From the NCBI GenBank assembly GCA_034433275.1, contig DAOUAT010000364.1, positions 1 through 38,604 on the forward strand: a stretch of DNA of 38,604 nucleotides. The letters are read 5' to 3'. Numbering within the stretch: position 1 is the first letter of the stretch; each line of letters opens with the position of its first letter. The notes beneath the pieces are model-generated. The model made no database searches and had not been told where the DNA came from. It saw nothing but the letters and a program-made list of their open reading frames with translations. A program made the translations under genes and the position numbers. Source of the DNA: Anaerolineae bacterium (lineage in GTDB: Bacteria; Chloroflexota; Anaerolineae; CG2-30-64-16). This document shows, piece by piece, positions 12,706-38,604 of the stretch.

Positions 12706-12708
12706 CGC

Positions 12709-16544: not shown

Positions 16545-16553
16545 GAGTGTCTT

Positions 16554-17843: not shown

Positions 17844-17924
17844 CGACGGACGACAGATGAAGGATGAAGGACGAAGGACGGACGAAACCGTTGGTCATTC
17901 GTCATTCGTCATTCGTCCCGTCCT
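17843..17924. repeat. Imperfect palindromic simple-repeat element: GAYGAAG/GACGRAC-type heptamers on the left arm and three TCATTCG heptamers on the right arm
   Basis: acgacggacgacagatgaaggatgaaggacgaaggacggacgaa-accgttgg-tcattcgtcattcgtcattcgtcccgtcc. Left gacgaa pairs with right ttcgtc, and ggacggacgaa pairs with ttcgtcccgtcc with one bulge. It sits exactly between the hydA stop (17841..17843) and the conserved protease core. Confidence 0.7.
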
Positions 17925-19542: not shown

Positions 19543-20016
19543 ATGACCGAACACACGAATACGCTTGATCTGGCGCCACTCGACCGGATCCTGGGGCAAT
19601 ATGGCAACCAGAAGGACGCTGTGATCCCGATCCTGCAGAACGTCCAGGAAGCTTACGGCTACCTGCCCAGGGAAATTCTGACCCAGATATCCAAACGCAC
19701 CGGCATCCCTGAGGCCCGGCTGATGGGGGTGGCGACCTTCTACGCCCAGTTCCGGCTGAAGCCGCGCGGCAAGCACCTGATTCGCATCTGTGATGGGACC
19801 GCCTGCCACGTGCGTGGGGCGCCTGGCATTGTCAGCGCTATCGCAGCCCAATACGACGTGCTCCCCGGAGCTTCGTCATCCGACTACAAATACACACTCG
19901 AAGTCGTGTATTGCGTGGGAGCGTGTGGGCTGGCCCCGGTCATCATAGTTGACGATCAAGTGCATGGCAATCTCTCCCCAGATGCTGCTATCGAAGCGTT
20001 GTGTCATATCGAGTGA
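19543..20016 (+). CDS. NuoE/HoxE/HydC-like thioredoxin-fold [2Fe-2S] subunit
   Basis: 157 aa. AVIPILQNVQEAYGYLP...ATFYAQF..KP.GKH.I.ICDGTACHVRGA...VYCVGACGLAPVIIVDD is the NuoE 24-kDa-subunit signature with its 4 Cys. Confidence 0.85.
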   Translation: MTEHTNTLDLAPLDRILGQYGNQKDAVIPILQNVQEAYGYLPREILTQISKRTGIPEARLMGVATFYAQFRLKPRGKHLIRICDGTACHVRGAPGIVSAIAAQYDVLPGASSSDYKYTLEVVYCVGACGLAPVIIVDDQVHGNLSPDAAIEALCHIE

Positions 20017-20039
20017 GGCCGTTCCACTAGGAGGAATTG

Positions 20040-21956: not shown

Positions 21957-21975
21957 CCTGGGCAAGAGGTAGCCA

Positions 21976-24825
21976 ATGCCAACAGTCAACATCACGATAG
22001 ACGGCCGCAAAATCCAGGCCGAGGCCATGCAGACCATCTACCAGGTGGCGTCAGCTAATGGGGTCTACATTCCCGTCTTGTGCCACCACCCGGCGCTGCC
22101 GCCCGAGGGCGCGTGCCGGGTCTGCCTGGTGGAAATCGAGCGCCAGCGCGCGCTCCAGCCAGCCTGCACCTTCCCCGTCACCGAGGGGCTGGTGATCCAC
22201 ACCAACTCCCCCAAGGTGCGGGAGGCGCGTAAGTTCGCCCTGGAGTTGATCATCTCCGACCACCCGCTGGACTGCATGACCTGCGAGGCGACGGGCGATT
22301 GCCGGTTGCAAGACCTGGCTTACGAGTACGATGTCAAAGGCGATGAATATACCGGCGGAGTGAAGCATAGTTATCCGGTGGATGACCCGAATCCGTTCAT
22401 CCAGGTGGATCGTAACAAGTGTATCCTGTGCCGCCGCTGTGTGCGGGCGTGCAACCATATCAACGGTGTCGAGGCAATCAGCGTGGTCTATCGCGGGTTC
22501 AACGCCAAGATCGCCTTCGGTATGGACTCCACCATGGAAGACAGCCCGTGTGAGTTCTGCGGGAGTTGCGTCGAGGTGTGCCCGGTGGCCGCGTTGTGGC
22601 CCAAGATGAGCCTCGGCAAGGGCCGGCCCTACCAAACTCGCCAGGTGGAGACGGTCTGCTCGTACTGTGGCGTGGGCTGCAAGCTGATCCTGCACCTGCG
22701 CGGCAATGAGATCGTCCGAGTGAGCGGCGGCAATGGTCCGGCCAACCACGGCTTCACCTGCGTCAAGGGCCGCTTTGGTTACGACTACGTCAACCATGCT
22801 GACCGGCTAAAAAAGCCGTTGGTGCGGCGTTATCTGCTGGAGGGCAAGCCCAAGCCGCGACCGCACGCGCCCGAAAGCGGCAACGGACACCATGAAGCAG
22901 CCGGGGCCGATCTGGATTGGGTTGAGACCTCCTGGGAGGAAGCCTTGGGGGTGGTCGCCCGGCAATGGATCGCGATCAAGCGGACCTTCGGCGGCGACGC
23001 GTTTACGGCCCTGTGCTCGGCCCGGTGCTCCAACGAGGAGAACTTTCTGACGGCCAAGCTGACCCGGCAACTGATGGAGACGCACAACATAGACCACTGT
23101 GCGCGGTTGTGACACAGCCCCACCGTCTCCGGTCTGGGGACTTCATTTGGCTCCGGGGCCATGACCAACACGTTCGATGACATCGCAGAACACGCGAAGT
23201 GCCTGTTCATCATCGGCTCCAACACCACCGAGCAGCATCCGGTGTTCGGCATGCGGCTGCGCCAGGCAGTCAGGCAGCGCGAGGTGCCGCTGATCGTGGC
23301 CGACCCGCGGCGCATCCCGATCACGCAATTTGCGACGATCCATCTGCGCCACAAGCCCGGCACTGATACGGCGCTGCTCAATGGCCTGATGCACGTGCTG
23401 ATTGCTGAAGACCTCTACGACCACGACTTTGTCGCCAATCGCACCGAAGGATTTGAAGATCTGAAGGCCAAGCTGGCGGAGTATCCGCCGGAGCGGGTGG
23501 CTGAAATCTGCGGCGTGCCCGCCAACGACATCCGCCGGGCGGCGCGCCTGATGGCCGCCAACAAACCCACCGCGATGATGTACGCGATGGGCATCACCCA
23601 GCACACCAACGGCCACGGCAACGTGATGAGCTGCGCCAATCTGCAAATGCTGCTGGGCAACATGGGCGTGCCGGGCGGCGGCGTCAACCCGCTGCGGGGC
23701 CAGTCCAACGTCCAGGGCGCGTGCGATATGGGCGGCCTGCCCAACGTCTACTCCGGCTATCAAAACGTGGCGTTGGAAGCCACGCACAAGAAGTTTGAGG
23801 CGGCCTGGGGCGCCGTGCCGCTGCAGGACAAGCCCGGCTTGACTGTGGTCGAGATGATGAACGCAGCCATTGATGGCAAAGTCAGGACGATGTACGTTTT
23901 GGGCGAGAACCCGATGCTATCGGATCCAGATCTCAACCATGTGCGCCACGCGCTGGAATCGTTGGACCTGCTGGTCGTGCAAGACTTGTTCATGACCGAG
24001 ACCGCGCAGATAGCCGATGTGGTGCTGCCGGGCGCCTCGTTTGCTGAGAAGGATGGCACCTTTACCAACAGCGAGCGTCGGGTGCAACTCGTCCGGCGGG
24101 CGCTGGACCCCTTGGGCGATACGCGGCCCGACTGGCAGATCATCTCGGAGTTGGGCCAGCAGCTGCTGGGGGCCGGCGTCCTGGCAGAACGCACGGCGGC
24201 CGTAGAGGCCGCCCCTTACGGTGCGTGGGACTACCTGAACCCGGCCGAGATCATGGACGAGGTCGCGGCGCTCACGCCGAGTTACGGCGGCGTCCGCCAT
24301 CAGCGCCTGATGAGCGGCAAGGGGCTGCAATGGCCGTGCCCCGATGACAAGCATCCCGGCACGCCGATCTTGCACGTGGGCAAGTTCACGCGCGGCCTGG
24401 GCAAGTTTGCCCCGGTGGACTTCTTAGGGCCGGCCGAGCTACCGGATGACGAATATCCACTGCTGCTGACCACCGGCCGCGTGCTGTGGCACTATCACAC
24501 CGGCTCTCTCACCCGGCGCGCCCAAGGCCTGGCGGCCATCTATCCCGAGGGCTTCATCGAGATGCACCCCGAGGACGCGGCGCGGCTGGGCGTTGCCAGT
24601 GGCGAGCTGGTAGAAGTCTCCAGCCGCCGTGGCCAGGTGAACGTGAAGGCTGATGTCACAGAAAAGATCCAGCCCGGGGTGGTGTTCATGACCTTCCACT
24701 TTGCCGAGAGCGCGGCCAACCTGCTCACCAATTCTGCCTTCGACCCGGTGGCCAAGATCCCCGAACTCAAGGCGTGTGCGGTGAAGGTGGTCAAATTGCC
24801 CGAAACCGTCTGTGAGGCGTGTTAA
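21976..24825 (+). CDS. fdhA: Formate dehydrogenase catalytic (alpha) subunit with a NuoG-like FeS N-terminus and a Mo/W-bisPGD domain; selenoprotein with in-frame UGA at 23110..23112
   Basis: The two listed ORFs (21976..23112 and 23161..24825) are in the same frame. The junction reads ...[35 protein letters not shown]..., the conserved FdhA/FdhF active-site context in which Sec or Cys is followed by H. N-terminus: 2Fe-2S (CHHP...CRVCLVE) plus 4Fe-4S motifs. The C-terminus is typical of the molybdopterin dinucleotide-binding domain. Confidence 0.85.
23116..23142 (+). promoter_or_regulatory. Candidate bacterial SECIS stem-loop just 3' of the fdhA UGA
   Basis: agccccaccg-tctc-cggtctggggact. Apical stem accg/cggt, lower stem cccc/gggg with a ct bulge. 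It contains GGUCU as in the E. coli fdhF SECIS and starts 4 nt after the UGA. Confidence 0.5.
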
Positions 24826-24910
24826 CCGGAATAACGGCAGTAACCGGTCTATCGGGATGACGCGCCAACCGGCATTCCGAGGGGTTTTCTGACGAGGTGA
24901 TCATTTTCTT

Positions 24911-26029
24911 ATGCCAAATGGAGAACTAACAATTGATGCCTTGATGCCGCCGCAGATGGCCGATCGGGCCGAAGCGATTGGCATCAAGAAAGCGAACACG
25001 GACTTCTGGACCATGTTTGCGTTAGCTGTGCTGGCCGGCGCATTCATCGGCGCTGGCGCGATGTTCGCAACAGTTGTGACAGCCGACGCGGCCGGCAAGT
25101 TGTCTTACGGCGTCGCCCGCTTATTGGGTGGCATCGTGTTTGCCGTCGGCCTGATCCTGGTCGTTGTTGCCGGGGCGGAGCTGTTCACGGGCAACAACCT
25201 GATCGTGATGGCCTGGGCAAATCGCAAAGTCAGCACCGGCAGACTCCTGCGCAACTGGGCCATCGTGTACGTGGGGAACCTGGTGGGGTCCGTGGCAAAT
25301 GCCATCCTGATCTTCTTGGGCCGCCAGTATACGTTCGGGAGCGGCGCAGTGGGCCTGCAAGTGCTCAATACGGCCGCATCTAAAACGAGTCTGAACTTCG
25401 TCCAAGCGTTAGCGTTAGGGATCATCTGCAATGCGCTGGTATGTATGGCTGTCTGGTTGTGCTACAGCGCCCGCAGCACGACAGATAAGATCCTCTCGAT
25501 CATCTTTCCGATTTCAGCGTTCGTAGCCGGTGGCTTCGAGCATAGCATCGCCAACATGTACTTCAGTAGACACGCTGACGTGTCTGGCAGTCGAGTAACA
25601 GTCAATCGTCGGCAAGGCGCAGGGAGGTGTGCCATGAAGCTTAACAATGTCCTGCAGGCCATAGACGGTAAGCTCATCACCAAAGAAGCAGACCTGGAGC
25701 TGGAAGTGCAGATGGGGTGCGGCGCCGACCTGATGAGCGATGTGCTGGCGTTCACCCACGCAGATACGCTGTTGCTCACCGGGCTCACCAACCCGCAGGT
25801 CGTGCGCACGGCGGACATGGCCGGGATCAGAGCGATTGTTTTCGTGCGGGGGAAACTTCCTCCCTCCGAAACGATCGCCCTGGCCGAGGACAAGGGCATC
25901 CCATTACTGGCCTCGAAGTACACGCTCTATGAAACTTGTGGCAAGCTTTATCGCGCAGGCATGCCGAGTTGTGGCCTGTTTGAGCACAGCGTCCGGCGTT
26001 GGGAGCAGTACTTTGAGGGCAAATCATGA
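24911..26029 (+). CDS. Single ORF. A formate/nitrite transporter (FNT) family protein lacking its last TM helix (aa 1-~218) reads without a stop into a DRTGG-domain protein (aa 242-372)
   Basis: The FNT part aligns by eye with FocA up to the conserved GGFEHSIANMYF motif (ends ~25564), then homology stops about 65 aa short. The other two frames hit stops within ~35 nt. From M242: MKLNNVLQAIDGKL...GADLMSDVLAF...LLLTGLTNPQVVRTA...IPLL..KYTLYETCGKLY, paralogous to 29812..30153. Confidence 0.7.
   Translation: MPNGELTIDALMPPQMADRAEAIGIKKANTDFWTMFALAVLAGAFIGAGAMFATVVTADAAGKLSYGVARLLGGIVFAVGLILVVVAGAELFTGNNLIVMAWANRKVSTGRLLRNWAIVYVGNLVGSVANAILIFLGRQYTFGSGAVGLQVLNTAASKTSLNFVQALALGIICNALVCMAVWLCYSARSTTDKILSIIFPISAFVAGGFEHSIANMYFSRHADVSGSRVTVNRRQGAGRCAMKLNNVLQAIDGKLITKEADLELEVQMGCGADLMSDVLAFTHADTLLLTGLTNPQVVRTADMAGIRAIVFVRGKLPPSETIALAEDKGIPLLASKYTLYETCGKLYRAGMPSCGLFEHSVRRWEQYFEGKS
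25621..25636 (+). promoter_or_regulatory. Internal SD (AGGGAGG) plus ATG 25634, the likely real start of the DRTGG protein (25634..26029)
   Basis: AGGGAGG at 25621..25627, 6 nt spacer, ATG at 25634, in frame with the FNT ORF. A perfect 7-bp hairpin agacacg-ctga-cgtgtct (25568..25585) lies at the point where FNT homology ends. Confidence 0.6.
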
Positions 26030-28352: not shown

Positions 28353-28931
28353 GTGGCAACCCATGAGGTCATTGTGCTCACTGACGTCAAACGCGATATG
28401 GCGTTTGGCGACCGCCTGACCCCCGCCGGGCTCGAGCTTCGTACTTGTATTCAATGCGGCACCTGCACGGCATCCTGTCCGTCAGCCTCCGCGATGGACA
28501 TCACCCCCCGCAAGATGTGGCGCATGGTGCAGTTGGGCATGGTCGAAGAGGTGCTGAAAAGCAAGACCATGTGGCTGTGCAGCATCTGCTATCAGTGCCA
28601 GGTGCGCTGCCCCCGCGGCATCCCCCTCACCGAGGCCATCGCCAAGCTCAAGCAGCTTGCGATCCAGCAGCAGGTCAAGCAGTGGCGTGAGAGCACCACG
28701 TTCTACCTGGCCTTCAGCGACGTGATGCGGCGCTATGGCCGGATGCGCGAGACCGAGTTCATGGCGCGTTACTTCCTCTCCACCAATCCGCTGGAGGCGC
28801 TGGGCTACGCCGGAATGGGGCTGACCCTGCTGCGTCGTGGCAAGCTGCGCCCTGAGCTGCCGCGGTTAGCAGGCGAGGGCAAGCTGTCCAGGCTGTTCGA
28901 TCGCGTGGCGGAACTGGAGGGTCGCAAATGA
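28353..28931 (+). CDS. hdrC: Heterodisulfide reductase subunit C-like (2x[4Fe-4S])
   Basis: AGGAGG is 7 nt upstream of GTG 28353. CIQCGTCTASCP and CSICYQCQVRCP motifs with typical HdrC spacing. 192 aa. Confidence 0.85.
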   Translation: MATHEVIVLTDVKRDMAFGDRLTPAGLELRTCIQCGTCTASCPSASAMDITPRKMWRMVQLGMVEEVLKSKTMWLCSICYQCQVRCPRGIPLTEAIAKLKQLAIQQQVKQWRESTTFYLAFSDVMRRYGRMRETEFMARYFLSTNPLEALGYAGMGLTLLRRGKLRPELPRLAGEGKLSRLFDRVAELEGRK

Positions 28932-29797
28932 AACGCTATCTGTTCTACCCCGGCTGCTCCATGGACGCTTCGGCGCTGGAGTACAAGAGCGCCATGCTGG
29001 CCGTGTTTGCCGCCCTGGGCGCCGAAGTCACCGAGCTAGAGGATTGGACCTGCTGCGGCGCCAGCGTGGCACCGGTGATGAGCGACTTGCTGGGGCTGGC
29101 GTTGCCGGCGCGCAATCTGGCGATCGCCGAGAAGATGGGCAACAGCCGGACCATGGTAGTTGGTTGCAGCGCGTGCTTCACCAGCTTTGCCCGCACCAAT
29201 GCGGCCGTTGCCGCTCCCGCCGCCTTGAGCCGTGTGAACCAGGCGTTGGTGGTGGAAAACCTCCAATACAACAACACCATCACGGTCCGCCACATGCTGG
29301 ACGTGCTGGCCAACGACTTTGGCCCGGCCGCAGTGGCCGCGGCTGTCAAACGCCCGTTGACCGGCCTGAAGGTGGCCCCCTACTACGGCTGCCAGACGGT
29401 GCGGCCGTATGCCTCGTTTGATGACGGCCAGCAGCCGTGGTCTATGGTGGCCCTGCTCGAGGCCTTGGGCGCTACGGTCTACCACCACCTGCAGGAGGCG
29501 ACCTGCTGCGGCACTGCGCTCTTAACGACCAAACCGGAATTGGGGCTGCGCATCGCCGGCAGCATCCTGGAGGCTGCGCAACCGGCCGACTGCATCGCCG
29601 CCGTGTGTCCCATGTGCCACATGAACCTGGATAGCTATCAAGATAAAGTGTCCAAGGTGTTACGCAAACCGATCAAGATCCCGGTGGTGTTCCTGCCGCA
29701 GCTGATCGGCCTGGCGTTTGGGCTCGGAGAGAAGGAACTGCTCTTCAAACGACACGTGGTGCCGGTTGCTCCGGTGTTGGACAAGGCGCCCGCCTGA
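28928..29797 (+). CDS. hdrB: Heterodisulfide reductase subunit B-like (two CCG domains)
   Basis: ATGA overlap with hdrC. There are two CX..CCG..CXXC modules: PGCS...WTCCGAS...GCSACF and YYGCQ...ATCCGTA...CPMCHMNL. Confidence 0.85.
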   Translation: MKRYLFYPGCSMDASALEYKSAMLAVFAALGAEVTELEDWTCCGASVAPVMSDLLGLALPARNLAIAEKMGNSRTMVVGCSACFTSFARTNAAVAAPAALSRVNQALVVENLQYNNTITVRHMLDVLANDFGPAAVAAAVKRPLTGLKVAPYYGCQTVRPYASFDDGQQPWSMVALLEALGATVYHHLQEATCCGTALLTTKPELGLRIAGSILEAAQPADCIAAVCPMCHMNLDSYQDKVSKVLRKPIKIPVVFLPQLIGLAFGLGEKELLFKRHVVPVAPVLDKAPA

Positions 29798-29811
29798 TGG
29801 TTGGAGGGACC

Positions 29812-30153
29812 ATGAAACTATCCGAGATCGTCCAACAGCTTTCGTTGGAAATCAAGGCCGGGACCGAGAAACTCGATGTCGAGGTCACCGGGGGCTATGC
29901 CTGCGATTTGTTGAGCTATGTGATGGCAAACGGCAAGGCAGGCGATCTCTGGATCACCATCCAGGGGCATCCCAATATCATCGCCGTCGCCAGCCTGATC
30001 AACCTTGCGGGGATCATCGTGGTTGAGGGCGCCAAGATCGATCCGGCAACCGTGGCCAAGGCCGACCAGGAACGCATCCCCTTGCTGGCAACCAACGAGA
30101 CGACCTACAACGTGGCTGGCAAACTGTACGCCTTGGGTGTGCATAGCGCGTAG
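29812..30153 (+). CDS. DRTGG-domain protein (paralog of 25634..26029)
   Basis: GGAGGG, then ATG 29812. MKLSEIVQQLSLEI..G...L...VTGGYACDLLSYVMA......LWITIQGHPNIIAVA.L..LAGIIV.EG......T...A....IPLLAT...TY.VAGKLY. The ORF is open from 29797. Confidence 0.75.
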   Translation: MKLSEIVQQLSLEIKAGTEKLDVEVTGGYACDLLSYVMANGKAGDLWITIQGHPNIIAVASLINLAGIIVVEGAKIDPATVAKADQERIPLLATNETTYNVAGKLYALGVHSA

Positions 30154-30157
30154 CCCC

Positions 30158-30748
30158 ATGCGTGAGTTGAGCCTGCACATCCTGGACATCTTGCAGAACT
30201 CGGCCGAAGCGGGCGCGACCCTGGTAGCGCTCACCATCGAGGAGGACCTGGCAGCTGACTGGTTGACCATCGTGGTGTGCGACAACGGTCGCGGCATCCC
30301 GGCCGATGTCTTGTCACACGTATTCGACCCGTTTTATACCAGCCGAAAAACGCGGCACGTGGGCCTGGGATTGCCTCTGCTGAAGGCGGCGGCCGAACGC
30401 TGCGCAGGCGATGTGGTGATCACGTCGGAAGTGGGTGTGGGAACGACGCTCACAGCCACCTTTCGACATAGTCACATCGATCGGGCCCCGTTGGGCGACC
30501 TGGGAGCAACGCTGCTGTCGTTCATCCTGGGTGGGACGTGCGATCTGCACTATGTACACCGCGTGACCGGCAGATCAGAAGATGGTAGATTGGCAGACTG
30601 GGATGTGGGCGCTGAGATCGGGGAATTCGAGTTTCATACCGTCCAGATCAAGGCCGCGTTAGGGGACGTGCCTCTGAGCCATCCGGCCGTGCGGGCATGG
30701 CTGCAAGAATTCATCACCGAGGGCGAAGCTGAGCTCAGGGGGGCTTAG
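30158..30748 (+). CDS. Stand-alone histidine-kinase-like ATPase (HATPase_c only; no HisKA or sensor domain)
   Basis: MRELSLHILDILQNSAEAGAT (N box), VCDNGRGIP (G1), HVGLGLPLLK (G2), GVGTTLTATF. ATG 30158 lies 4 nt after the upstream TAG. The ORF-track start at 30005 overlaps the previous gene. Confidence 0.75.
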   Translation: MRELSLHILDILQNSAEAGATLVALTIEEDLAADWLTIVVCDNGRGIPADVLSHVFDPFYTSRKTRHVGLGLPLLKAAAERCAGDVVITSEVGVGTTLTATFRHSHIDRAPLGDLGATLLSFILGGTCDLHYVHRVTGRSEDGRLADWDVGAEIGEFEFHTVQIKAALGDVPLSHPAVRAWLQEFITEGEAELRGA

Positions 30749-30826
30749 AAGCGGGATCAGGAGCATCCCTTCTACGCCACCCAGCCTGCAAGCCCCCAAT
30801 CTACCAGTCTACCAAGTTGCCAACCC

Positions 30827-31612
30827 ATGGCCTTTTTTGCCGCCGACCTGCACCTGCACACCGTCCTCTCGGCGTGCGCCGAGAGTGAGATGCTGCCCGC
30901 CCTGATCCTTGAGCGGACGGCGGCCTTGGGGCTGGATATCATCGCCATCACCGACCATAACTCGTCGGAGAACGCGGCCGCGATGATTCAGGCGGCGGAA
31001 GCTATGGGGATCGTCGTCTGGCCGGGCATGGAGTTGCAATCACGGGAAGAGGCGCACCTGCTGTGCCTGTTCGACACGTTGGCGCAGGCGCTGCAATGGC
31101 AAGCGCTCGTTTACACCAGCCTGCCGCCTTTGAAGAACAAGCCGGCCGTCTTCGGCCAGCAGGTTGTGCTGGCGCCGGACGGCGATCCGGTCGGCTACAA
31201 CGACCGGCTGCTGGCGACCTCGTCGGCGCTTTCGGTGGATGAAGCCGTCGCCGGCGTGCGTGCGCTGGGCGGCCTGTGCATCCCGGCGCACGTTGACCGA
31301 CCGATGTACAGCATCATCGCGAACCTGGGCTTCGTCCCGCCGGAACTGGACGTCCCGGGCGTGGAGATTTCGCACCTGTTGGGCCCGAAGGAGGCGCGGG
31401 CCCGGTTTCCCCAATTGGCGCGTTATGGGTTGATCGCCAACAGCGATGCGCATCGGCTGAGCGAGATACGCAAACGCACCACCCTGAAGCTGGCCGCGCC
31501 GACGGTGGCCGAGTTGGCGCTGGCATTGGCAGGCCGGGAAGACCGAGGCGTTTGGATTGATGGCTTGCGCGCCAACCGTGAAGGCGCCACTGAGCAGTGG
31601 CACAGCCTATGA
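30827..31612 (+). CDS. PHP-domain (polymerase/histidinol-phosphatase-like) metal-dependent phosphoesterase
   Basis: N-terminal ADLHLHTVLSACA...IIAITDHNS, later PAHVDR and NSDAH. These are the His/Asp metal-ligand motifs of PHP domains. Confidence 0.75.
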   Translation: MAFFAADLHLHTVLSACAESEMLPALILERTAALGLDIIAITDHNSSENAAAMIQAAEAMGIVVWPGMELQSREEAHLLCLFDTLAQALQWQALVYTSLPPLKNKPAVFGQQVVLAPDGDPVGYNDRLLATSSALSVDEAVAGVRALGGLCIPAHVDRPMYSIIANLGFVPPELDVPGVEISHLLGPKEARARFPQLARYGLIANSDAHRLSEIRKRTTLKLAAPTVAELALALAGREDRGVWIDGLRANREGATEQWHSL

Positions 31613-32790
31613 CACCGCCCAAGCTTTGGATCGAAACCGCGCACGAAACGTGGCCCGGCCCGGCCGACGAGGGAACCGGCATCATCATTCGCACCTTATC
31701 AACTGAGGACCGCTTTCTGGCGTTGTTGGCGCATGGGAACGGGTGGGCTACCCCAGATCCTCGTGCCGCGCTGCTGGCTGCCTGGGAGGCGTTGGCCTGG
31801 GGGGCTGAGTTCACGCTCACCGGCGAGCGCCTGCTGGCGAAGTTGCCGGTCGGCATGCACCTGCCGTGGGCCGCGCTGGAAGCGGGGCCGGCGAGCGCTG
31901 CGGGGGGCGGATCAGGGCAACTGCTGGAGTGCGACGCGCCACCGATGTTCTATGCGCGGCGCGGGGAGGTCGTGCTGCTGCCCGTCATCGAGGAAGAGGC
32001 GCACGGCCGGTTGTTACGTCGCTGCGACTTCGACGTTCGGGACGGCGACCACCTGGCGTTGGTCAGCGAAAACTACATTCGCGCCAAAGGCGGCGCCCAA
32101 CCGTGGTGCTGGCGCGATATCGCTGTATCCATCCGTCGCTTGATAGTCACGGGGGGCAGCGCGGCGGAACTGGCGGGGGCATTGGCGCGGATAGCGAATC
32201 AGCGAATCAGCGAATCAACGAATCAGCGAATCGGTGAATTCGCCATTCGCCATTCACCATTCGCCATCCTTGCCATGCGCGTCCGGCCCGTGCGCAGCGT
32301 GAGGGTGTGGACCGGCCCGCCGGCCGAGCGGAAACGGGATCAGGCGGCGTTAGCGCAGCTCTTGGCAGAGGAGGGTCGCCGCGTCATCTGCGGTGACACG
32401 ACGGCTGAGATCGCGGCCCGACTGCTGGGCGGCAGACTGGCGATGGACCCGCCGCCGCCGGAGGGTTGGGGCGAAGTGCCGCCGACCTTGCGCCTGGCCG
32501 GGGCCGCCGAGCGGGTGGATTTGATCACCGAAGGCGCGGTGACGCTCCATGTGGCGCAGCAACGGCTAGCCGAGACGCAGCGGCCGCGCGACCTGGCAGG
32601 CCGCAGCGATGGCGCTTCTCAGCTGGCAAAGCTGTTATTGGAAGCGGACAAGGTCACCTTTCTGGTCGGCCTGGCTGTGAACCCGGCTCAAACGGAGCGG
32701 GATGGAACGCCGTTGCGCAAGGCCGCGGTCGAGGATCTGGTGCAGAGGTTGAGGGCACGCGGCAAGATCGTGTCTGTGACATTTTTCTGA
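31609..32790 (+). CDS. SpoIIE/PP2C-like protein with an apparently degenerate catalytic site plus a C-terminal domain of unknown function; carries an in-frame repeat insertion
   Basis: ATG 31609 overlaps the PHP stop (ATGA). The ORF is open from GTG 31597. SpoIIE-like spacing is present (...LLAHGNGW..P..AAL...ECDAPPMFYARRGEVVLL...VRDGDHLALVSENYI). However, the usual GD..D, DVSGHG and SDG acidic residues are replaced. The C-terminal half (VICGDTTAEIAARLLG...VDLITEGAVTL...) is a type I recall seeing next to hydrogenase-operon phosphatases. Confidence 0.55.
   Translation: MTPPKLWIETAHETWPGPADEGTGIIIRTLSTEDRFLALLAHGNGWATPDPRAALLAAWEALAWGAEFTLTGERLLAKLPVGMHLPWAALEAGPASAAGGGSGQLLECDAPPMFYARRGEVVLLPVIEEEAHGRLLRRCDFDVRDGDHLALVSENYIRAKGGAQPWCWRDIAVSIRRLIVTGGSAAELAGALARIANQRISESTNQRIGEFAIRHSPFAILAMRVRPVRSVRVWTGPPAERKRDQAALAQLLAEEGRRVICGDTTAEIAARLLGGRLAMDPPPPEGWGEVPPTLRLAGAAERVDLITEGAVTLHVAQQRLAETQRPRDLAGRSDGASQLAKLLLEADKVTFLVGLAVNPAQTERDGTPLRKAAVEDLVQRLRARGKIVSVTFF
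32194..32267. repeat. Palindromic simple-repeat element inside the CDS: five GCGAATCA-type octamers followed by four ATTCGCC-type heptamers
   Basis: gcgaatca gcgaatca gcgaatca acgaatca gcgaatcg gtga attcgcc attcgcc attcacc attcgcc. The arms are mutually complementary through the gcgaat/attcgc core. It translates in frame as ANQRISESTNQRIGEFAIRHSPFAI. It shares the CGAAT/ATTCG core with the element at 17843..17924. Confidence 0.75.
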
Positions 32791-32847: not shown

Positions 32848-33693
32848 ATGGAAAAACCCAAGATCGGCGTCTATGTCTGTGACTGTGGCGTGAACATTGC
32901 GGCCACAGTCAATGTCCCCGAGGTCGTCAAGTTCTCGGAGGGGCTGCCGAACGTGACCGTGGCGCGCGAGTACAAGTATATGTGCTCCGATCCCGGCCAA
33001 AAGATGATCAAGGAGGACATCAAACAATTCGGGCTGGACCGTGTCGTCGTCGCAGCATGTACGCCCCGCATGCACGAACCGACCTTTCAAAACGCCGTCA
33101 ACGAAGCTGGCATGAACCCGTACCACTTCGCCATGGCGAACATCCGCGAGCACGTCTCCTGGGTGGTCAAGGACGTGCCCGCGGGCACCGAAAAGGCTAA
33201 GCGCCTGGTCAACGCCACTGTGATGCGCGTGGCGCTGCAAACCGAGCTGTACGCGCGCAAGGAACCGGTGACGCCGGCCGCGCTGATCGTCGGCGGTGGC
33301 ATCGCCGGCATCCAGGCTGCGCTCACGGTCGCTGATGCAGGCTACAAGGTGTACCTGGTCGAGCGGGAATCGTCCATCGGCGGGCACATGGCCCAGCTGG
33401 ACAAAACGTTCCCCACGCTCGACTGTAGCACCTGAATTCTGGGGCCCAAAATGATGGATGCCGGTCGGCATCCCCAGATAGAGCTCCTGACCTACAGCGA
33501 AATCGAAGAAGTGTCGGGCTACGTGGGTAACTTCAAAGTGAAGGTGCGCAAAAAGGCCCGCTACGTGGACACCGAGGCGTGCACCGGTTGCGGCTTGTGC
33601 TGGCAGGAATGCCTCACCGTGCGCATCCCGCAGCTCAAGCTCATCAAGATGGGCGAGATGAGCCTGGGTGAAAGGAGGCCCGGCGACCGATGA
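32848..33693 (+). CDS. hdrA: HdrA N-terminal fragment: N-terminal 4Fe-4S domain, FAD (GxGxxG) region and the first CxxCxxCxxxC motif of the inserted ferredoxin domain; selenoprotein with in-frame UGA at 33433..33435
   Basis: ORFs 32848..33435 and 33451..33693 share one frame. The junction reads [37 protein letters not shown]. This matches the conserved HdrA ...LDKTFPT.DCS.C(U)IL.PKM... segment, in which some organisms use Sec. GGAGGG lies upstream of ATG 32848. It ends ...RYVDTEACTGCGLCWQECL... and stops at 33693, overlapping the next start (ATGA). Confidence 0.8.
33456..33473 (+). promoter_or_regulatory. Candidate SECIS apical stem-loop (7-bp stem, GGUC loop) downstream of the hdrA UGA
   Basis: ggatgcc-ggtc-ggcatcc, flanked by ctgggg (33439..33444) and ccccag (33473..33478), which can extend the helix. 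The loop sequence is the same as in the E. coli fdhF SECIS (gcaGGUCugc). It starts 20 nt after the UGA. Confidence 0.55.
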
Positions 33694-34241
33694 ACGAGTA
33701 CAGCACGCAACGCGTCGAAGAGATCATCCGCAGCTACAACTCGGACATGACCAACGGCCTGGCCATCCTCCAGGATATCCAGCGTGAGTATAACTACCTC
33801 CCGCGCCAGGCACTTGAACTGGTTGCCGAGCGCGTGGGCCTGCCGCCGGGGCACGTCTATCGCCTCGCCACCTTCTTCAAGGCGTTCAGCCTCAACCCCA
33901 AGGGCGAGCACCAGTGCAAGGTCTGCCTGGGCACCGCCTGCCACGTCAAGGGCGGCGCGTTGATCCTGGAGACGTTGGAGAAGGAGCTGGGCGTCAAGGC
34001 GGGCATCACCACGGCCGACGGCAAGTTTTCGCTGGAAGGGGTGCGCTGCCTGGGCGCCTGCGCCCTGGCGCCGATCGTCGTGATTGACGATGAGCCGTTG
34101 GGACAGATGACATCGGATGCCGCCGCCAGCAAACTGCGCGACCTGCGCGCCGGCAAGGCGGTGCCCGTGCCGGCCCAGGTGGCGCCCAAAGTTGCTGCCA
34201 AGACGCCGGTGGACCGCTCAGCCGTGCCGCCGAAAGGATAA
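33690..34241 (+). CDS. NuoE/HydC-like thioredoxin-fold [2Fe-2S] subunit (second copy)
   Basis: LAILQDIQREYNYLP...ATFFKAFSL.PKGEH..KVCLGTACHVKGG...VRCLGACALAPIVVIDD. AAAGGAGG lies upstream. It has a C-terminal Ala/Pro/Lys-rich tail. Confidence 0.85.
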   Translation: MNEYSTQRVEEIIRSYNSDMTNGLAILQDIQREYNYLPRQALELVAERVGLPPGHVYRLATFFKAFSLNPKGEHQCKVCLGTACHVKGGALILETLEKELGVKAGITTADGKFSLEGVRCLGACALAPIVVIDDEPLGQMTSDAAASKLRDLRAGKAVPVPAQVAPKVAAKTPVDRSAVPPKG

Positions 34242-34247
34242 GCCAAG

Positions 34248-34622
34248 ATGCCTCAACTCAAAAGCTTAGACGAACTCCGCTCCTTGCGCGCGCGGCTGCA
34301 ACAGGATATCAAAACCCGCACCGAGACCAGCACGACTATCACCGTCGGCATGGGGACGTGCGGCATCGCGGCCGGTGCGCGCGAGGTGATGCAGGCCTTT
34401 TGGGACGAGCTGGCGGCCCGCCAGATTGACGCCCATGTCGTCACCACCGGCTGCATCGGCATGTGCTCCAAGGAGCCGCTGGTAGACATCCAACAGGGCG
34501 ATGGCCCGCGCATCACTTACGGCAACATAGACACAACCATGGTGCCGCGCATCATCGAAGAGCACATCATCCAGGGGCATGTGGTGAGCCCGTGGGTGGT
34601 GGGCCAGGCGGCGAGGGGGTAA
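34248..34622 (+). CDS. Small thioredoxin-like (2Fe-2S) ferredoxin-domain protein (HydD-like position between the NuoE-like and NuoF-like genes)
   Basis: 124 aa. ITVGMGTCGIAAGAREV...VVTTGCIGMCSKEPLVDI...YGN......I.EEHI..G. The same position and size are seen for the small fourth subunit described for some NADH-dependent [FeFe] hydrogenase operons. Confidence 0.7.
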   Translation: MPQLKSLDELRSLRARLQQDIKTRTETSTTITVGMGTCGIAAGAREVMQAFWDELAARQIDAHVVTTGCIGMCSKEPLVDIQQGDGPRITYGNIDTTMVPRIIEEHIIQGHVVSPWVVGQAARG

Positions 34623-34624
34623 AG

Positions 34625-36550
34625 ATGGCAGATCCTTCGACTCCACTCAGGATGCACCGAGCCGATGTCCTGGTCAGTTGTCTGCACGGCCGGGCCCCCG
34701 AATTCATCCCCACCTTGAAAGAGGAGATCGCCCAGCGCGGCCTGGCCGAAGAGGTCAGGGTGGTTGAGACCGGCTGCCGCGGCTTCTGCAGCATGGGGCC
34801 GGTGCTCACGATCGAGCCCGGCGGCGTTTTCTACGCCAACGTACAAGCGGCCGACGTCCCCGAACTGGTTGAAGAGACGCTGGTGAAGGGCCGTGTGGTG
34901 CAGAAGCTGTTGTACAAGGAGCCGGTGGGCCGCAAGGCCGTGCAAAAGTACGAGCAGATCCCGTTCTACGCCAAACAGATGCGCATCGTCCTGGGCAATT
35001 CCGGCCGCATCGAGCCGACCTCCATTGAAGAGTACATCGCGGTCGGCGGCTACGAAGCCCTGGGTAAGGCGCTGGCTTCGCTGACACCGGAGCAGGTGAT
35101 TGACGAGGTCAAGAAGTCCGGTCTGCGCGGGCGCGGGGGCGCGGGGTTCTACACCGGCCGGAAGTGGGAGCACACCCGCCACGCGGCCGGAGACGTGAAA
35201 TACATCATCGCCAACGGTGACGAGGGCGATCCGGGCGCGTTCATGGATCGCGCCTTGATGGAAGGCGATCCGCACGCGGTGCTCGAGGGGATGATCATCG
35301 GCGGGTATGCTGTGGGCGCACACCAGGGCTACATCTACGTGCGCGACGAATATCCCTTGGCGGTGAAGAACCTCGGCATCGCGCTCGGCCAGGCGCGCGA
35401 GTTCGGCCTGCTCGGCGCCGACATCCTGGGCTCCGGCTTCGATTTCGATATCAAGATCGTGCGCGGGGCCGGCGCGTTTGTGTGCGGCGAGTCCTCGGCG
35501 CTGATGCAATCGCTGGAGGGCAAGGTTGGCGAGCCGCGGGCCAAGCACGTCCACGCCACCGACCGCGGCTTGTGGGATCGGCCCTCATGCCTCAACAACG
35601 TCGAAACCTGGGCCAACATCCCGCACATCATTAACCAGGGCGCGGACTGGTTCGCCAGCATCGGCACCGAGCACAGTAAGGGCACCAAGGCATTCTGTCT
35701 GGTGGGCAAGGTGCGCAACCCCGGCCTGATCGAAGTGCCCATGGGGATGAGCCTGAAGAGCATCGTCAACGACATCGGCGGCGGGCCGCCCAAGGGCCGT
35801 AAGATCAAGGCGGTGCAGACCGGCGGGCCGTCCGGCGGCTGCATCCCGGCCGACAAGCTCGACATCCCGGTGGACTACGAAACCCTGACCGAAGCCGGCT
35901 CCATGATGGGCTCCGGCGGCATGATCGTGCTGGATGACCGGACCTGCATGGTGGACATCGCCCGCTACTTCCTGGAGTTCCTCAAGGACGAGTCCTGCGG
36001 CAAGTGCTCCACCTGCCGCGAGGGCATCAAGCGCATGTTGGAGATCCTGACCCGCATCGCTGATGGCACGACCAGGCCGGGCGACCTGCCGATGTTGGAG
36101 GCGCTGGCGAAGACAGTCGCTTCCTCTTCGTTGTGCGGCCTGGGCAAGTCGGCGCCGAACCCGGTCATCAGCACCCTGCGCTACTTCCGCCACGAGTACG
36201 AGCAGCACATCAACCAGCAGTTCTGCGAGTCCGGTGTGTGCCGCGATCTGGTGGCGTTCGTGATCCTGGAGGACAAGTGCAAGGGCTGCGGCTTGTGCAT
36301 CAAGGTCTGCTCGCAGGATGGCATCTCCGGTTCGCTGAAACAGCCGCACGAGATTGACCAGGTGAAGTGCATCCAGTGCGGCGCGTGCTTCGAGGCGTGC
36401 AATCTCAACGCCATCCAGATCGTGCCGCGGTCGACCGTGGTGGTCGGCCAGACAACCGTGCCGGTGCTCACGCAACCGACGGCGGGCGCCGCCGGTCGAA
36501 AGGCGCAAAGCGGCGGCAACGGCAACGGCCGCAAGGCTGCGGGGAGGTGA
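34625..36550 (+). CDS. NuoF/HydB-like NAD(H)/FMN subunit (second copy) with a C-terminal 2x[4Fe-4S] domain
   Basis: ATG 34625 lies 2 nt after the upstream TAA. The ORF track extends it spuriously to 34463. GLRGRGGAGFYTGRKWE...YIIANGDEGDPGAFMDR, ESCGKCSTCREG...CGLG, CKGCGLCIKVCS...CIQCGACFEACN. It is colinear with 20040..21956. Confidence 0.9.
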   Translation: MADPSTPLRMHRADVLVSCLHGRAPEFIPTLKEEIAQRGLAEEVRVVETGCRGFCSMGPVLTIEPGGVFYANVQAADVPELVEETLVKGRVVQKLLYKEPVGRKAVQKYEQIPFYAKQMRIVLGNSGRIEPTSIEEYIAVGGYEALGKALASLTPEQVIDEVKKSGLRGRGGAGFYTGRKWEHTRHAAGDVKYIIANGDEGDPGAFMDRALMEGDPHAVLEGMIIGGYAVGAHQGYIYVRDEYPLAVKNLGIALGQAREFGLLGADILGSGFDFDIKIVRGAGAFVCGESSALMQSLEGKVGEPRAKHVHATDRGLWDRPSCLNNVETWANIPHIINQGADWFASIGTEHSKGTKAFCLVGKVRNPGLIEVPMGMSLKSIVNDIGGGPPKGRKIKAVQTGGPSGGCIPADKLDIPVDYETLTEAGSMMGSGGMIVLDDRTCMVDIARYFLEFLKDESCGKCSTCREGIKRMLEILTRIADGTTRPGDLPMLEALAKTVASSSLCGLGKSAPNPVISTLRYFRHEYEQHINQQFCESGVCRDLVAFVILEDKCKGCGLCIKVCSQDGISGSLKQPHEIDQVKCIQCGACFEACNLNAIQIVPRSTVVVGQTTVPVLTQPTAGAAGRKAQSGGNGNGRKAAGR

Positions 36551-36554
36551 AGAC

Positions 36555-38354
36555 ATGGCAAAATCAACCCTGACGATTGACGGTCAGATCATCCAGGCCG
36601 ACGGCAGCATGACCATCCTGGAGGTCTGCCGCAAGAACAACATTCACATCCCCACGCTGTGCTACCATCCGGTGCTGGAACCGTACGGCGCGTGTCGCCT
36701 CTGCACCGTCGAGGTGACCCGCAAAGGCTGGTCGAGCCTGCACACCTCCTGCACGCATCCGGCGTGGGACGGGATCGAGGTGAAGACCAACTCGCCGGAG
36801 GTGCGCGAGGCGCGCAAGATGATCATGGGACTGATGCTCTCGCGCACCCCCAACGTGCCGATCATCCAGGAGTTGGCCGCGGAGTATGGCGTGGCCGAGC
36901 CACCCTTTGCCGTGGATGACCCCAACGAGAAGTGCATCCTGTGCGGGCTGTGCGTGCGGGTGTGCAACGACATGGTGCAGGCCCACGTGCTGAACTTCTC
37001 GGATCGGGGCGTGGATCGCAAGGTTGGCCCGCCGTTCATGGAGAAAACACGGCAGTGCATCGGCTGCGGCGCATGCACCATCGTCTGCCCCACCGGCGCC
37101 ATCGAGATCGTGCTGGAGCAAAACGGCATCTATGCCGAGAAGCCGCTCGGTCCCACGGCGGCCATCTACGTGCCGTCGCTGCAGGCAGTGCCCCGCGCGC
37201 CGGTGATCGACACCGACTCGTGCATCCGCTTCCGGCAGTACGACCGCTCCAACGGAGAGATCGCCGACGCGTGCGGCGCGTGCCAGCAGCTCTGCGAGGC
37301 GAACGCGATTGACTTCACCCAAAAGGACGAGGTCATCGAGCTGGACGTGGGCGCCATCATCGTGGCCACCGGCTTCCAGATGTGGGATTCCAGCAAGCTG
37401 AGCCAGTACTCTTACGGCAAGTCACCCAACATCATCACCGCGCTGGAGTTCGAACGGCTGTCCAACGCCAGCGGCCCCACCGGCGGCCAAATCGTCACCG
37501 CCGACGGGAAGACGCCGGAGCGAGTCGCGCTCATCCACTGCGTGGGCTCGCGCGACAAAAACGTCAACGCGCACGAATACTGCTCGCGCATCTGCTGCAT
37601 GTACTCGCTGAAGCAGGCCCACCTGGTGCGCGACAAGACGCACGCCGACGTGTACGAGTTCTACATGGACATGCGCGCGTTCGGCAAGGGCTACGAGGAG
37701 TTCTACGAGCGCGTCCAGGAAGAAGGGGTGGTGATGGTGCGCGGCCGCGGGGCCGAGGTGCAGGTGCTGCCCTCCGGCAAGCTGCGCGTGACGGGCGAGG
37801 ATGCCAACCTGGGCAAACTGGTGGCCGTGGACGTGGACATGGTGGTGCTGAGCTCGGCCATCGAGGCCCCGGCCGACGCGTCGAAGGTCGGCTCGCTGTT
37901 CGGCCTCTCCCGCACCTCCGACGGCTGGTTCGCCGAAGCGCATCCCAAGCTGAAGCCGGTGGAGACCAATACCGACGGCGTGTTCCTGGCCGGCTGCGCG
38001 CAGGGGCCGAAGGACGTGCCCGACACGGTGGCGCACGCGGGCGCGGCGGCCTCTCAAGTCCTCGCGCTGTTGAGCAAGGGCGAAGTGACCATCTCGCCGC
38101 AGGTTGCGATCGTGGACGAGAAGCTCTGCTCCGCGTGCAAGACCTGCCTGTCAGTGTGCCCGTATGGCGCCATCGGCTTCATCGTGGACGCGAACAGCGC
38201 GCGCATCAACGAGGCGCTGTGCAAGGGCTGCGGCACCTGCGTGGCAACCTGCCCGGCCGGCGCGATCACCGGCCAGCACTTCACTGATGAGCAGATCTAC
38301 GCGCAGATCGAGGGGCTGTTCCGGCTGCCGGAGCGGGTGGAGGTGGTAAGATGA
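36555..38354 (+). CDS. hdrA: Fusion protein: HydA/NuoG-type FeS N-terminus (2Fe-2S, 4Fe-4S clusters) joined to the C-terminal two-thirds of HdrA (rest of the inserted ferredoxin domain, FAD domain, C-terminal 2x[4Fe-4S])
   Basis: The N-terminus [15 protein letters not shown]...[19 protein letters not shown]...[12 protein letters not shown]...[16 protein letters not shown] parallels the FdhA N-terminus at 21976. From ...[21 protein letters not shown]...[15 protein letters not shown]...[14 protein letters not shown]...CVGSRD...[14 protein letters not shown]...[28 protein letters not shown]...[16 protein letters not shown]...[16 protein letters not shown] it is canonical HdrA. GGGAGGTGA lies upstream. 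Confidence 0.85.
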
Positions 38355-38604
38355 GTACTAATGGTAAATTCGAGCCTCGTATTGTAGGCTTCCTCTGCAA
38401 CTGGTGTACCTACACCGCGGCCGACACCGCCGGCGTCTCGCGCATGGAGCAGCCGCCCAACGTGGACATCATCCGCTTCATGTGTACGGGCCGCATCGAG
38501 CCGGCCTTCGTGCTGAAGGCGTTCGCCGAAGGGGCCGATGGCGTGATCATCTCCGGCTGCCATCCGCCCGGCGATTGCCACTACACCAACGGCAACTACA
38601 AGAC
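38351..38604 (+). CDS. mvhD: MvhD-like (methyl-viologen-reducing hydrogenase delta subunit family) protein; 3' end lies beyond the window
   Basis: ATG 38351 overlaps the upstream TGA (ATGA). [31 protein letters not shown]...[38 protein letters not shown] is the MvhD signature. Confidence 0.85.

Follow-up and report, generated by a model that had tools for sequence, protein, structure and literature searches.

How can one HdrA flavoprotein be encoded by two genes that lie either side of a cassette belonging to another class of electron-bifurcating enzyme, and what would the resulting protein do? The question is raised by a stretch of 38,604 nt from an Anaerolineae bacterium (GCA_034433275.1, contig DAOUAT010000364.1; "the window" below means this whole stretch), in which twelve genes from hdrC to mvhD follow one another on one strand with spacings of -16 to +78 nt (Table 1). 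Within this operon hdrA is divided into an N-terminal half (hdrA-N) and a C-terminal half fused behind a BfuA-type iron-sulfur module (bfuA-N::hdrA-C, hereafter the fusion), with ATGA overlaps at the hdrA-N/bfuC and fusion/mvhD junctions. The reading favoured here, held with about even confidence, is that the predicted products form one multi-subunit oxidoreductase in which an MvhD/HdrABC-type bifurcating core is hard-wired to a BfuABC-type NAD(H)/ferredoxin module.

The first-pass annotation of this DNA had placed the start of HdrA at 32848-33693 and its resumption within 36555-38354, with NuoE-like, small thioredoxin (Trx)-like ferredoxin and NuoF-like genes between the two, and comparison with solved structures and domain profiles bears this out. 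The product of the first gene, 281 aa when read through a single in-frame TGA, aligns with residues 1 to ~261 of solved HdrA (8rvu_a, E 6e-103; 5odc_A, E 4.6e-101) and terminates 26 residues past CTGCGLCWQEC, the first of two Cys motifs (motif I) in the inserted ferredoxin domain. The 599-aa fusion matches HdrA through to its C-terminus (E 1.5e-121), the HMMER match to HdrA 246-656 extending over fusion residues ~159-592. An overlap of the two halves was considered on this basis and rejected, the match from HdrA 246 reflecting a generic likeness of the last CxxCxxCxxxCP of BfuA to motif I; genuine HdrA homology in the fusion begins at ~residue 195 (HdrA residues ~265-656). When the alignment proposed in that annotation was run, one HdrA was found to be covered complementarily, with positions 1-254 of the NCBIfam HdrA2 profile (777 positions) in the N-half, 264-641 in the fusion and 646-722 in the mvhD fragment, each HdrA piece matching the NCBIfam HdrA profiles below their curated cut-off. 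HdrA is not a single continuous polypeptide at this locus, its two genes lying 2.9 kb apart, and is predicted to be built from two polypeptides. Because the break sits right behind motif I, the flavin adenine dinucleotide (FAD)-binding TrxR domain and the inserted ferredoxin fold must, on the sequence, each assemble in trans from two chains, as had been proposed. The flanking genes were likewise correctly placed, Pfam identifying mvhD (FlpD) downstream and hdrC and hdrB (two CCG domains) upstream, the hdrCB pair lying 3 kb upstream with four other genes between it and hdrA-N.

Pfam domains in the three intervening genes agree with the types assigned to them. The best PDB matches of BfuC are the bifurcating HydC/BfuC subunits (8a6t_C, 7p5h_C, 7t2r_C, 9mqx_C) and the Cx4C...Cx3C pattern of the C1 [2Fe-2S] cluster is present. 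BfuB is colinear with the NiFe-BfuB 7t2r_B over residues 11-597 (E 2.6e-229), also matches 9mqx_B, HydB, StnB and NfnB, and has much lower similarity to complex I NuoF than to these bifurcating B subunits. It has the architecture of the family, with an N-terminal Trx-like domain, a flavin mononucleotide (FMN)/NADH domain, the B1 site and a C-terminal 2x[4Fe-4S] domain (Pfam Complex1_51K, NADH_4Fe-4S and the C-terminal dicluster). In the Bfu classification the signature of a bifurcating BfuB is given as the B2 [2Fe-2S] ligands C438, C476/T, H525, C531 and C536 (A. mobile BfuB), the His being absent from non-bifurcating homologues (PMC9304861). Four of these five are kept in the window (Cys, the diagnostic His, Cys and Cys), which was taken as retention of the signature, and position 476 is Ala instead of Cys/Thr. 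At B5 there are not four Cys ligands; three Cys and a conserved His (SCLH) are found in the window and in most orthologues. In this N-terminal Trx-like site (34625-34800) the sequence SCLH(G/D)R replaces the canonical CxxxxC, which is present in L014 and L035 (loci are given by L numbers and proteins by P numbers). The cassette is predicted to carry out NAD(H)/ferredoxin bifurcation.

The module ahead of the HdrA C-half had been described as FdhA/HydA/NuoG-like. A 2Fe-2S/2x[4Fe-4S] module is indeed present, but its nearest relatives are of the Wor/Bam type rather than HydA: fusion residues 6-188 are closest to the 247-aa BfuA of WorABCSL (9mqx_A, E 1.7e-42), followed by the N-termini of HydA, NiFe-BfuA, NuoG and FdhA. 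It carries the A1, A2 and A4 clusters, and because the His-ligated A3 cluster is missing it is assigned as a Wor/Bam/F420-type BfuA rather than HydA proper. At the sequence level this iron-sulfur chain is nested within HdrA's inserted ferredoxin domain. A distant relative, P0143 (JGI 3300042731), has HdrA-N with motif I, a linker, BfuA-N and HdrA-C with motif II in a single chain, an order showing BfuA-N to be a nested domain that separates motif I from motif II of the inserted ferredoxin.

The arrangement is not peculiar to one assembly. The fusion protein is represented in more than 120 database clusters (74-100% identity, ~590-610 aa), all from Chloroflexota metagenome bins, and a locus scan taking one genome per species returned 80 loci. 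The synteny search called for in the first-pass annotation recovered the full order hdrA-N / nuoE / (Trx-Fd) / nuoF / bfuA-N::hdrA-C from 24 independent species-level loci in Anaerolineae metagenome-assembled genomes (MAGs), with ~10 further loci, truncated by contig ends, showing whatever part of the order their contig holds. This recurrence goes well past what chance would give and covers ~30 species of uncultured Anaerolineae. Upstream, many of these loci likewise retain hdrC-hdrB and a four-gene cassette encoding DRTGG, HATPase, PHP and 397-aa proteins.

It is very improbable that the pieces form no single complex and represent an hdrA disrupted into a pseudogene, a chimera of the assembly or a pair of unrelated enzymes that happen to be neighbours. 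Such a reading draws on the behaviour of gene callers, which halt at the TGA and annotate the pieces separately, labelling the fusion '4Fe-4S dicluster protein' or 'HdrA', and on one related locus (L008) that looks rearranged. Set against it are at least 119 full-length fusions with invariant ligands, an N-half of the same length in 25 loci, the same gene order in MAGs of many independent studies, a selenocysteine insertion sequence (SECIS)-like hairpin with compensatory changes, and inter-subunit fusions in other lineages. Because the fusion, the N-half and the gene order are all conserved, assembly error, against which a check had been recommended, and pseudogenisation are excluded.

Fusions among distant relatives, which were taken from 50%-identity representatives, bear on whether the pieces belong together. 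In L082 (2796-11941) and L083 (363-9928) a whole HdrA-N is fused to BfuC (423 aa) and followed by BfuB and BfuA-N::HdrA-C, the last being additionally fused to MvhD in L083; likewise P0130 joins BfuA-N::HdrA-C::MvhD in one chain. Since HdrA-N::BfuC, C-half::MvhD and single-chain forms exist, these cross-lineage fusions argue that the split pieces belong to one complex.

The surroundings of these relatives differ. L082 and L083 adjoin genes for EtfAB, acyl-CoA dehydrogenase and HdrD-like or CCG proteins, which suggests an Etf-linked version, and P0143 is encoded beside genes for BamC/BamB-like tungsten aldehyde:ferredoxin oxidoreductases (AOR). P0124 and P0126 (~1090 aa) have BfuA-N fused to a permuted double HdrA that is BamE-like in look. 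In L081 (96-6409) a 50%-identical fusion (P0121) lies behind a BfuB C-terminal fragment joined to a GltD-like FAD/NAD(P)H domain, which replaces the dicluster ferredoxin domain, and is followed by mvhD-mvhG-mvhA, the contig being cut upstream.

Table 1. Genes and sequence elements of the hdrC to mvhD operon in the window.
Feature	Coordinates	Strand	Remarks
hdrC	28353..28931	+	192 aa, two [4Fe-4S] motifs; Pfam Fer4_17/Fer4_8; matches to NCBIfam HdrC profiles stay under the cut-off; retained upstream at many related loci
hdrB	28928..29797	+	289 aa, two complete CCG motifs; Pfam CCG x2; full-length to 5odc_B, E 1e-36
DRTGG-domain protein, gene 1 of four-gene cassette	29797..30153	+	Pfam DRTGG; position kept in related loci
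HATPase_c-domain protein (histidine-kinase-like ATPase)	30158..30748	+	Pfam HATPase_c 2e-18; position kept
PHP-domain protein	30827..31612	+	Pfam PHP 3.5e-9; position kept
397-aa conserved protein	31597..32790	+	same place in >15 loci, 40-58% identity
hdrA N-half	32848..33693	+	281 aa; 4-Cys cluster domain, FAD GGGIAG start, Cys193/Sec196, motif I, conserved 26-aa tail
Sec codon TGA, equivalent to Cys/Sec197 of methanogen HdrA	33433..33435	+	TGA in 54/59 HdrA genes
SECIS-like hairpin GGAUGCC-GGUC-GGCAUCC	33456..33473	+	20 nt after UGA; comparative evidence
bfuC / nuoE-like [2Fe-2S] subunit	33690..34241	+	183 aa; Pfam 2Fe-2S_thioredx 1e-45; HydC/BfuC PDB matches
small Trx-like ferredoxin, HydD-like	34248..34622	+	124 aa, only 3 Cys; weak Pfam 2Fe-2S_thioredx below cut-off; kept in related loci
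bfuB / nuoF-like FMN-NADH subunit	34625..36550	+	641 aa; N-terminal Trx-like and C-terminal 2x[4Fe-4S] domains; colinear with 7t2r_B, 9mqx_B
BfuA-type module of fusion, residues 1-188	36555..37118	+	9mqx_A E 1.7e-42; Pfam Fer2_4, Fer4
HdrA C-half of fusion, residues ~195-599	37137..38354	+	HdrA ~265-656, E 1.5e-121
mvhD, first 84 codons (cut by window end)	38351..38604	+	Pfam FlpD 2.8e-34

All 28 predicted ligand Cys of the fusion are invariant in 119 full-length members, with two non-ligand Cys varying. In the BfuA part these are C36/47/50/66 for the [2Fe-2S] cluster and C127/130/133/137 with C168/171/174/178 for the 2x[4Fe-4S], and in the C-half they are motif II (C223/240/243/247), the TrxR-domain cluster (C329/343/347/348) and the C-terminal dicluster (C525-C566). 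Lys353 of the fusion, which corresponds to the Lys409 beside the flavin in 5ODC, is invariant in the same 119 sequences. The N-half was exactly 281 aa long in all 25 copies examined, with ten invariant Cys/Sec positions, including the N-terminal [4Fe-4S] site (C11, C13, C46 and C71, aligned to solved HdrA and invariant in the 25 copies), and with a conserved tail, CWxEC(L/F)TxRIPxLKLIKMGEMSxGERRxGxR. FAD binding is predicted from GGGIAG (a GxGxxG start) in the N-half together with the CxGSRD...CSxxCC cluster motif of the TrxR domain and Lys353 in the fusion, the Cys/Sec197 pair (LDCSxC/U) is present as C193 and U196, and both the inserted and the C-terminal 2x[4Fe-4S] domains are encoded, motif I (C245/248/251/255) being supplied by the N-half and motif II by the fusion. 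In keeping with the earlier suggestion of two candidate bifurcating flavin sites, hallmarks are kept at both, namely Lys353 of HdrA and, in BfuB, the B2 His with three of the four other B2 ligands.

These hallmarks bear directly on whether HdrA bifurcates at all. HdrA might serve mainly as a wire or scaffold, the enzyme being in effect a [NiFe]- or Fdh-type Bfu enzyme in which electrons from Mvh cross HdrA to BfuABC without bifurcation at the FAD and H2 or formate is coupled to NAD+ and ferredoxin as in NiFe-Bfu or HydABC, with HdrBC as a redox-sensing or safety-valve branch. There are parallels for this in the many third-substrate modules that BfuA takes across Bfu enzymes (Schut et al. 2022), in the second, non-bifurcating FAD of BamE, which has a structural role (BCRII preprint), and in the conserved sensor-like cassette of the operon (DRTGG, HATPase, PHP). 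It is nevertheless unlikely, as the hallmarks of a bifurcating HdrA (Lys353, the Cys/Sec pair, the cluster toward HdrC and both HdrB CCG motifs) are all strictly kept, hdrCB is retained in the operon of many species, and selenocysteine (Sec) would be costly to maintain at a non-catalytic site.

The in-frame TGA of hdrA-N is a genuine Sec codon. It is placed at the LDCSx(C/U)ILxPKM site, aligning with Cys/Sec197 of methanogen HdrA, and HdrA of M. maripaludis carries Sec at this position (PMC13518236). Across the fetched loci the site codon is TGA in 54 of 59 HdrA genes and TGC or TGT in the other five. The hairpin downstream forms part of the minimum free energy fold and its nucleotide sequence is nearly invariant across loci, with compensatory GGAUGUC/GACAUCC pairs in L028, L032, L068 and L070 and loss of the GGUC loop in both Chloroflexota TGC variants (L007 and L040). 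The 71-nt fold as a whole was not significant against shuffled sequences (z -1.41; 21 of 200 shuffles fold as well) and Rfam gave no match in the window at gathering thresholds and none at E<=10 around the UGA, so the case for a SECIS rests on conservation. In L010 (5515-7221) the N-half alone is duplicated in tandem, both copies being 281 aa, with TGA (Sec) at position 196 in the first and TGC (Cys) in the second. These Sec/Cys isoforms show that the N-half is a separate, exchangeable subunit.

The donor to such a complex is best approached through the relatives, since the window ends in mvhD and holds, of the MvhAGD-HdrABC gene set, hdrCB, the split hdrA and mvhD. The mvhD of the window shares 98% identity with its counterparts in L001 and L033, in both of which mvhG lies directly next, followed by mvhA in L033, L001 being cut within mvhG. 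Genes mvhD-mvhG-mvhA of the [NiFe] group 3c type follow the fusion in L002, L003, L005, L007, L016, L017, L020, L031 and L033 and lie further downstream of it in L013, and mvhG also follows mvhD in L001, L010, L014 and L015, where the sequence ends before mvhA. Among the closest relatives mvhG follows mvhD in L001, L002, L003, L005 and L033, with mvhA in all but L001. In a second subgroup (L009 and L022) mvhD is followed by an iron-sulfur protein and a Sec-containing formate dehydrogenase instead of mvhGA. As the relatives continue with mvhG-mvhA or a Sec formate dehydrogenase, H2 or formate is probably the donor. The earlier proposal of an NADH-linked complex therefore holds in that an NAD(H) module is present, but the complex would not be solely NADH-linked. 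In L002 a PD-(D/E)XK nuclease-family gene (13284-13652) lies between mvhG and mvhA.

According to published structures of HdrA, the C-terminal ferredoxin domain with MvhD forms the entry from hydrogenase, the TrxR-domain cluster forms the high-potential route to HdrC and HdrB, and low-potential electrons reach ferredoxin by a route made up of the N-terminal cluster, the Cys/Sec197 pair and the inserted ferredoxin domain (PMC9012536, PMC13518236). The N-half supplies essentially this low-potential route, together with the beginning of the FAD fold. BfuA is inserted where that route ends and lies with its distal A4/A2 side next to it; Type 1 Bfu enzymes take electrons from their catalytic domain in the same orientation (Schut et al. 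2022). As the inserted ferredoxin domain, which holds the cassette, is where low-potential electrons normally leave HdrA, electrons are read as passing from H2 or formate to HdrA and on to the Bfu core. H2 via MvhAG and MvhD, or formate via Fdh in sister lineages, would reduce the HdrA FAD, which would bifurcate, the high-potential electrons passing through HdrC and HdrB to a disulfide and the low-potential electrons passing from the N-terminal cluster through the inserted ferredoxin clusters and BfuA to the BfuBC FMN/iron-sulfur core, which would reduce NAD+ and ferredoxin. Two serial bifurcations would lower the average acceptor potential, such that oxidation of H2 or formate could stay exergonic at low H2 and still yield reduced ferredoxin. 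Estimated from textbook midpoint potentials, NAD+ as an extra co-acceptor raises the mean acceptor potential, which could keep the reaction feasible at low H2. On the boldest reading, a tentative one held at clearly less than even confidence, the locus may encode a natural two-stage series machine in which HdrA bifurcation driven by H2 or formate feeds a Bfu core to give NADH and reduced ferredoxin at the expense of a disulfide, with an FAD domain and ferredoxin fold assembled in trans, an exchangeable Sec/Cys low-potential half and a wiring unlike the confurcation-then-bifurcation of benzoyl-CoA reductase. Such a machine would be common among Anaerolineae of sediments and groundwater, and its Etf- and AOR-linked cousins would be found elsewhere. 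The direction and the substrate given here are those that we infer for the complex.

Several observations weigh against this series reading. The wiring is read from the order of domains rather than from cluster distances. BfuB departs from the family consensus in its B5 site and in the Ala at B2 position 476 described above. The mvhG and mvhA genes lie outside the window, and L021, L024-L026 and L032 are without mvhD, Mvh or Fdh nearby. In L008 (8295-11755), on a 5.2-Mb scaffold, the fusion and mvhD lie behind a 5'-truncated bfuB together with genes of unrelated kinds, and neither hdrA-N nor bfuC occurs within 10 kb; either this copy is rearranged or decaying, or the scaffold is in error. Finally, the sole characterised enzyme to combine Bfu and HdrA, class II benzoyl-CoA reductase (BCRII), uses its Bfu part in the opposite role, as a confurcating input via BamI, the C-terminal ferredoxin domain and BamF (BCRII preprint, April 2026).

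This precedent provides the starting point for the possible, if rather less probable, opposite reading, in which BfuBC confurcates NADH and reduced ferredoxin and sends mid-potential electrons through BfuA into HdrA, which then bifurcates to HdrBC, and thence a disulfide, and to a low-potential acceptor, with Mvh or Fdh as an alternative donor or an outlet evolving H2 or formate. Bfu enzymes are described as reversible (Schut et al. 2022), NADH and ferredoxin may be the sole donors in those split loci without an Mvh or Fdh partner, and the distant L082 and L083 lie beside EtfAB and acyl-CoA dehydrogenase genes, comparable to the electron-transfer flavoprotein acceptor of BCRII. However, BfuA is nested in the canonical exit and not beside the C-terminal ferredoxin domain/MvhD entry that BCRII uses, that entry is already taken by MvhD in the subgroup of the window, with MvhGA in relatives, and a separate low-potential output module is not encoded. 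At least in the subgroup that has neither Mvh nor Fdh, and in the Etf-linked cousins, the order of events may be that of BCRII. Among the loci without mvhD, an LplA-like lipoate-protein ligase gene (11761-12807) overlaps the fusion stop codon in L025, a possible hint at a lipoylated protein as the substrate of HdrB. The sHdr systems of sulfur oxidisers offer a lipoylated-protein parallel.

Besides the hdr-bfu genes the operon contains the four-gene cassette between hdrB and hdrA-N (29797-32790), found in the same position in more than 15 related loci, which may be a regulatory or sensor module; the 397-aa protein (31597..32790) at its end gave no Pfam, NCBIfam or PDB match. Other redox genes occur elsewhere in the window. 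A second Bfu-type enzyme (19543-26029) is encoded by nuoE-like (19543-20016) and nuoF-like (20037-21956) genes, the latter with the canonical CGGTGC Trx-like N-terminus, and by a NuoG-N::formate dehydrogenase alpha subunit gene (21976-24825); this FdhA (CARL-U-HSP, TGA at 23110-23112) is the second selenoprotein gene of the window, and the gene after it (24911-26029) joins a formate/nitrite transporter to a DRTGG domain. At 12709-14949 a response-regulator/histidine-kinase protein carries a fused Fer4_22 domain, a domain typical of sulfhydrogenase beta subunits. Behind it lie genes for an FAD/NAD-binding subunit and for the small and large subunits of a [NiFe] enzyme (14959-17843), a subunit set resembling a group 3b hydrogenase. 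Next comes a maturation protease for hydrogenase that has a receiver domain fused to it (17836-18816).

How the locus compares with known systems can now be considered. Among HdrA proteins with insertions the closest are of the HdrL type, whose inserted ferredoxin domain is likewise broken up, in their case by an NfnB/GltD-like NAD(P)H module. The site is a known insertion hot spot, such a module being present there in HdrA of sister Anaerolineae and of ANME-1. HdrL-type proteins have one FAD/NAD(P)H domain inserted within a single polypeptide, whereas the window has a four-gene cassette and a split gene, the module itself being a Bfu-type bifurcating core; no GltD/NfnB-like domain is inserted, the same site being taken by BfuA-N, with bfuC and bfuB as genes of their own. 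Of the HdrA forms compared, the Anaerolineae GltD-inserted one is nearest to the C-half, at 72% identity compared with 60-66% for ordinary HdrA. Split and GltD-inserted forms are mixed in a neighbour-joining tree of C-half sequences, which is not robust and serves here as a sign of close kinship and not for counting events. GltD-inserted Sec-HdrA proteins of ~1110-1150 aa are encoded in L036, L039, L043, L045, L055, L058, L063-L065, L071 and L072, with mvhD next in most. Genes mvhG-mvhA accompany them in L036, L039, L043, L045, L055 and L058 and were not detected in L063, L064, L071 and L072. Some MAGs with the split form also carry an ordinary hdrCBA-mvhD locus and a GltD-inserted HdrA with mvhDGA.

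With the methanogen MvhAGD-HdrABC and Fdh-Hdr complexes (5ODC, 7BKB, 8RVU) the locus shares full-length homologues of HdrA, HdrB, HdrC and MvhD with all cofactor ligands, the Lys near the FAD and the Cys/Sec197 site, and in its relatives the Mvh or Sec-Fdh donors encoded after mvhD. In those complexes, however, HdrA is one chain whose inserted ferredoxin domain reduces free ferredoxin or a polyferredoxin, whereas in the window BfuA breaks into that domain and bfuC and bfuB lie between the two parts of the gene. With an Anaerolineae bacterium as host, CoM-S-S-CoB is not the expected substrate. To the Bfu family (HydABC, NiFe-Bfu, Nfn-Bfu/Stn and Wor-Bfu), as treated by Schut et al. (2022), the locus is linked by colinear BfuB and BfuC, the B2 His and a BfuA that, like those of Type 1, carries a fused third-substrate domain, and it differs in that the fused domain is half of another bifurcating flavoprotein, B5 has three Cys and a His, and one B2 ligand is Ala. 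No Hdr- or Mvh-linked Bfu class other than Bam-Bfu was found in the searched text and one supplement of the classification (PMC9304861), in which 18 of 57 clades are left uncharacterised.

The closest characterised enzyme is BCRII of Geobacter metallireducens, Bam[(BC)2DEFGHI]2 (Bam-Bfu), in which the HydBC/Bfu-type BamGHI is joined to the HdrA-type BamE with an MvhD-like adaptor BamF, an HdrBC-like BamD and selenocysteine, and in which BamI is of the A1/A2/A4 BfuA type without A3, as in the window. The preprint describing it states that both bifurcation modules had not been reported before in one complex (BCRII preprint, April 2026). BamI is a separate subunit contacting the C-terminal ferredoxin domain of BamE and BamF, on the entry side, whereas BfuA of the window is covalently nested on the exit side; BamE is a fused, permuted HdrA dimer of ~1000 aa, whereas the window has one HdrA equivalent of 281 aa plus ~405 aa; and the exit of BCRII leads to the tungsten AOR BamBC. 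In the window both CCG motifs of HdrB are complete, and relatives have Mvh or Fdh as the partner. No AFOR-family gene (BamB/BamC) was found among the scanned open reading frames of the window (operon genes and long frames at 12.7-28.1 kb, the first ~12.7 kb lying outside the scan) or in the related Anaerolineae stretches examined. Membership of BCRII was rejected on the grounds that the scanned frames hold no AOR gene and that the form of HdrA is different.

The claim that the arrangement is not that of a characterised enzyme holds in part, in that no published description of the architecture was found, but Bfu and HdrA modules are already combined, with a different wiring, in BCRII. In the full-text literature search neither a split hdrA nor a BfuA::HdrA fusion nor an operon of the Mvh/Fdh-Hdr-Bfu type was found described, the HdrA-module review of Appel et al. 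(2021) lying outside that search. Each module is already known, as is the coupling of Bfu to HdrA in Bam-Bfu; what is new is this architecture, which is well supported genetically, its reaction and direction being uncertain. If the proposed wiring is true, it would bear on how abundant sediment Chloroflexota obtain low-potential reducing power from trace H2 or formate and on how such genes are annotated, would offer a natural split-flavoprotein test case for a two-chain bifurcating flavin domain, and would bear on the role of Cys/Sec197, the Sec-bearing half being a swappable separate subunit as in the tandem copies of L010. BCRII is the only enzyme known to couple the unrelated HdrA-type FAD and Bfu-type FMN/iron-sulfur forms of bifurcation, and the locus described here would represent a second, differently wired coupling, one that is common in uncultured Anaerolineae and occurs in hydrogenase-, formate dehydrogenase-, Etf- and AOR-linked versions.

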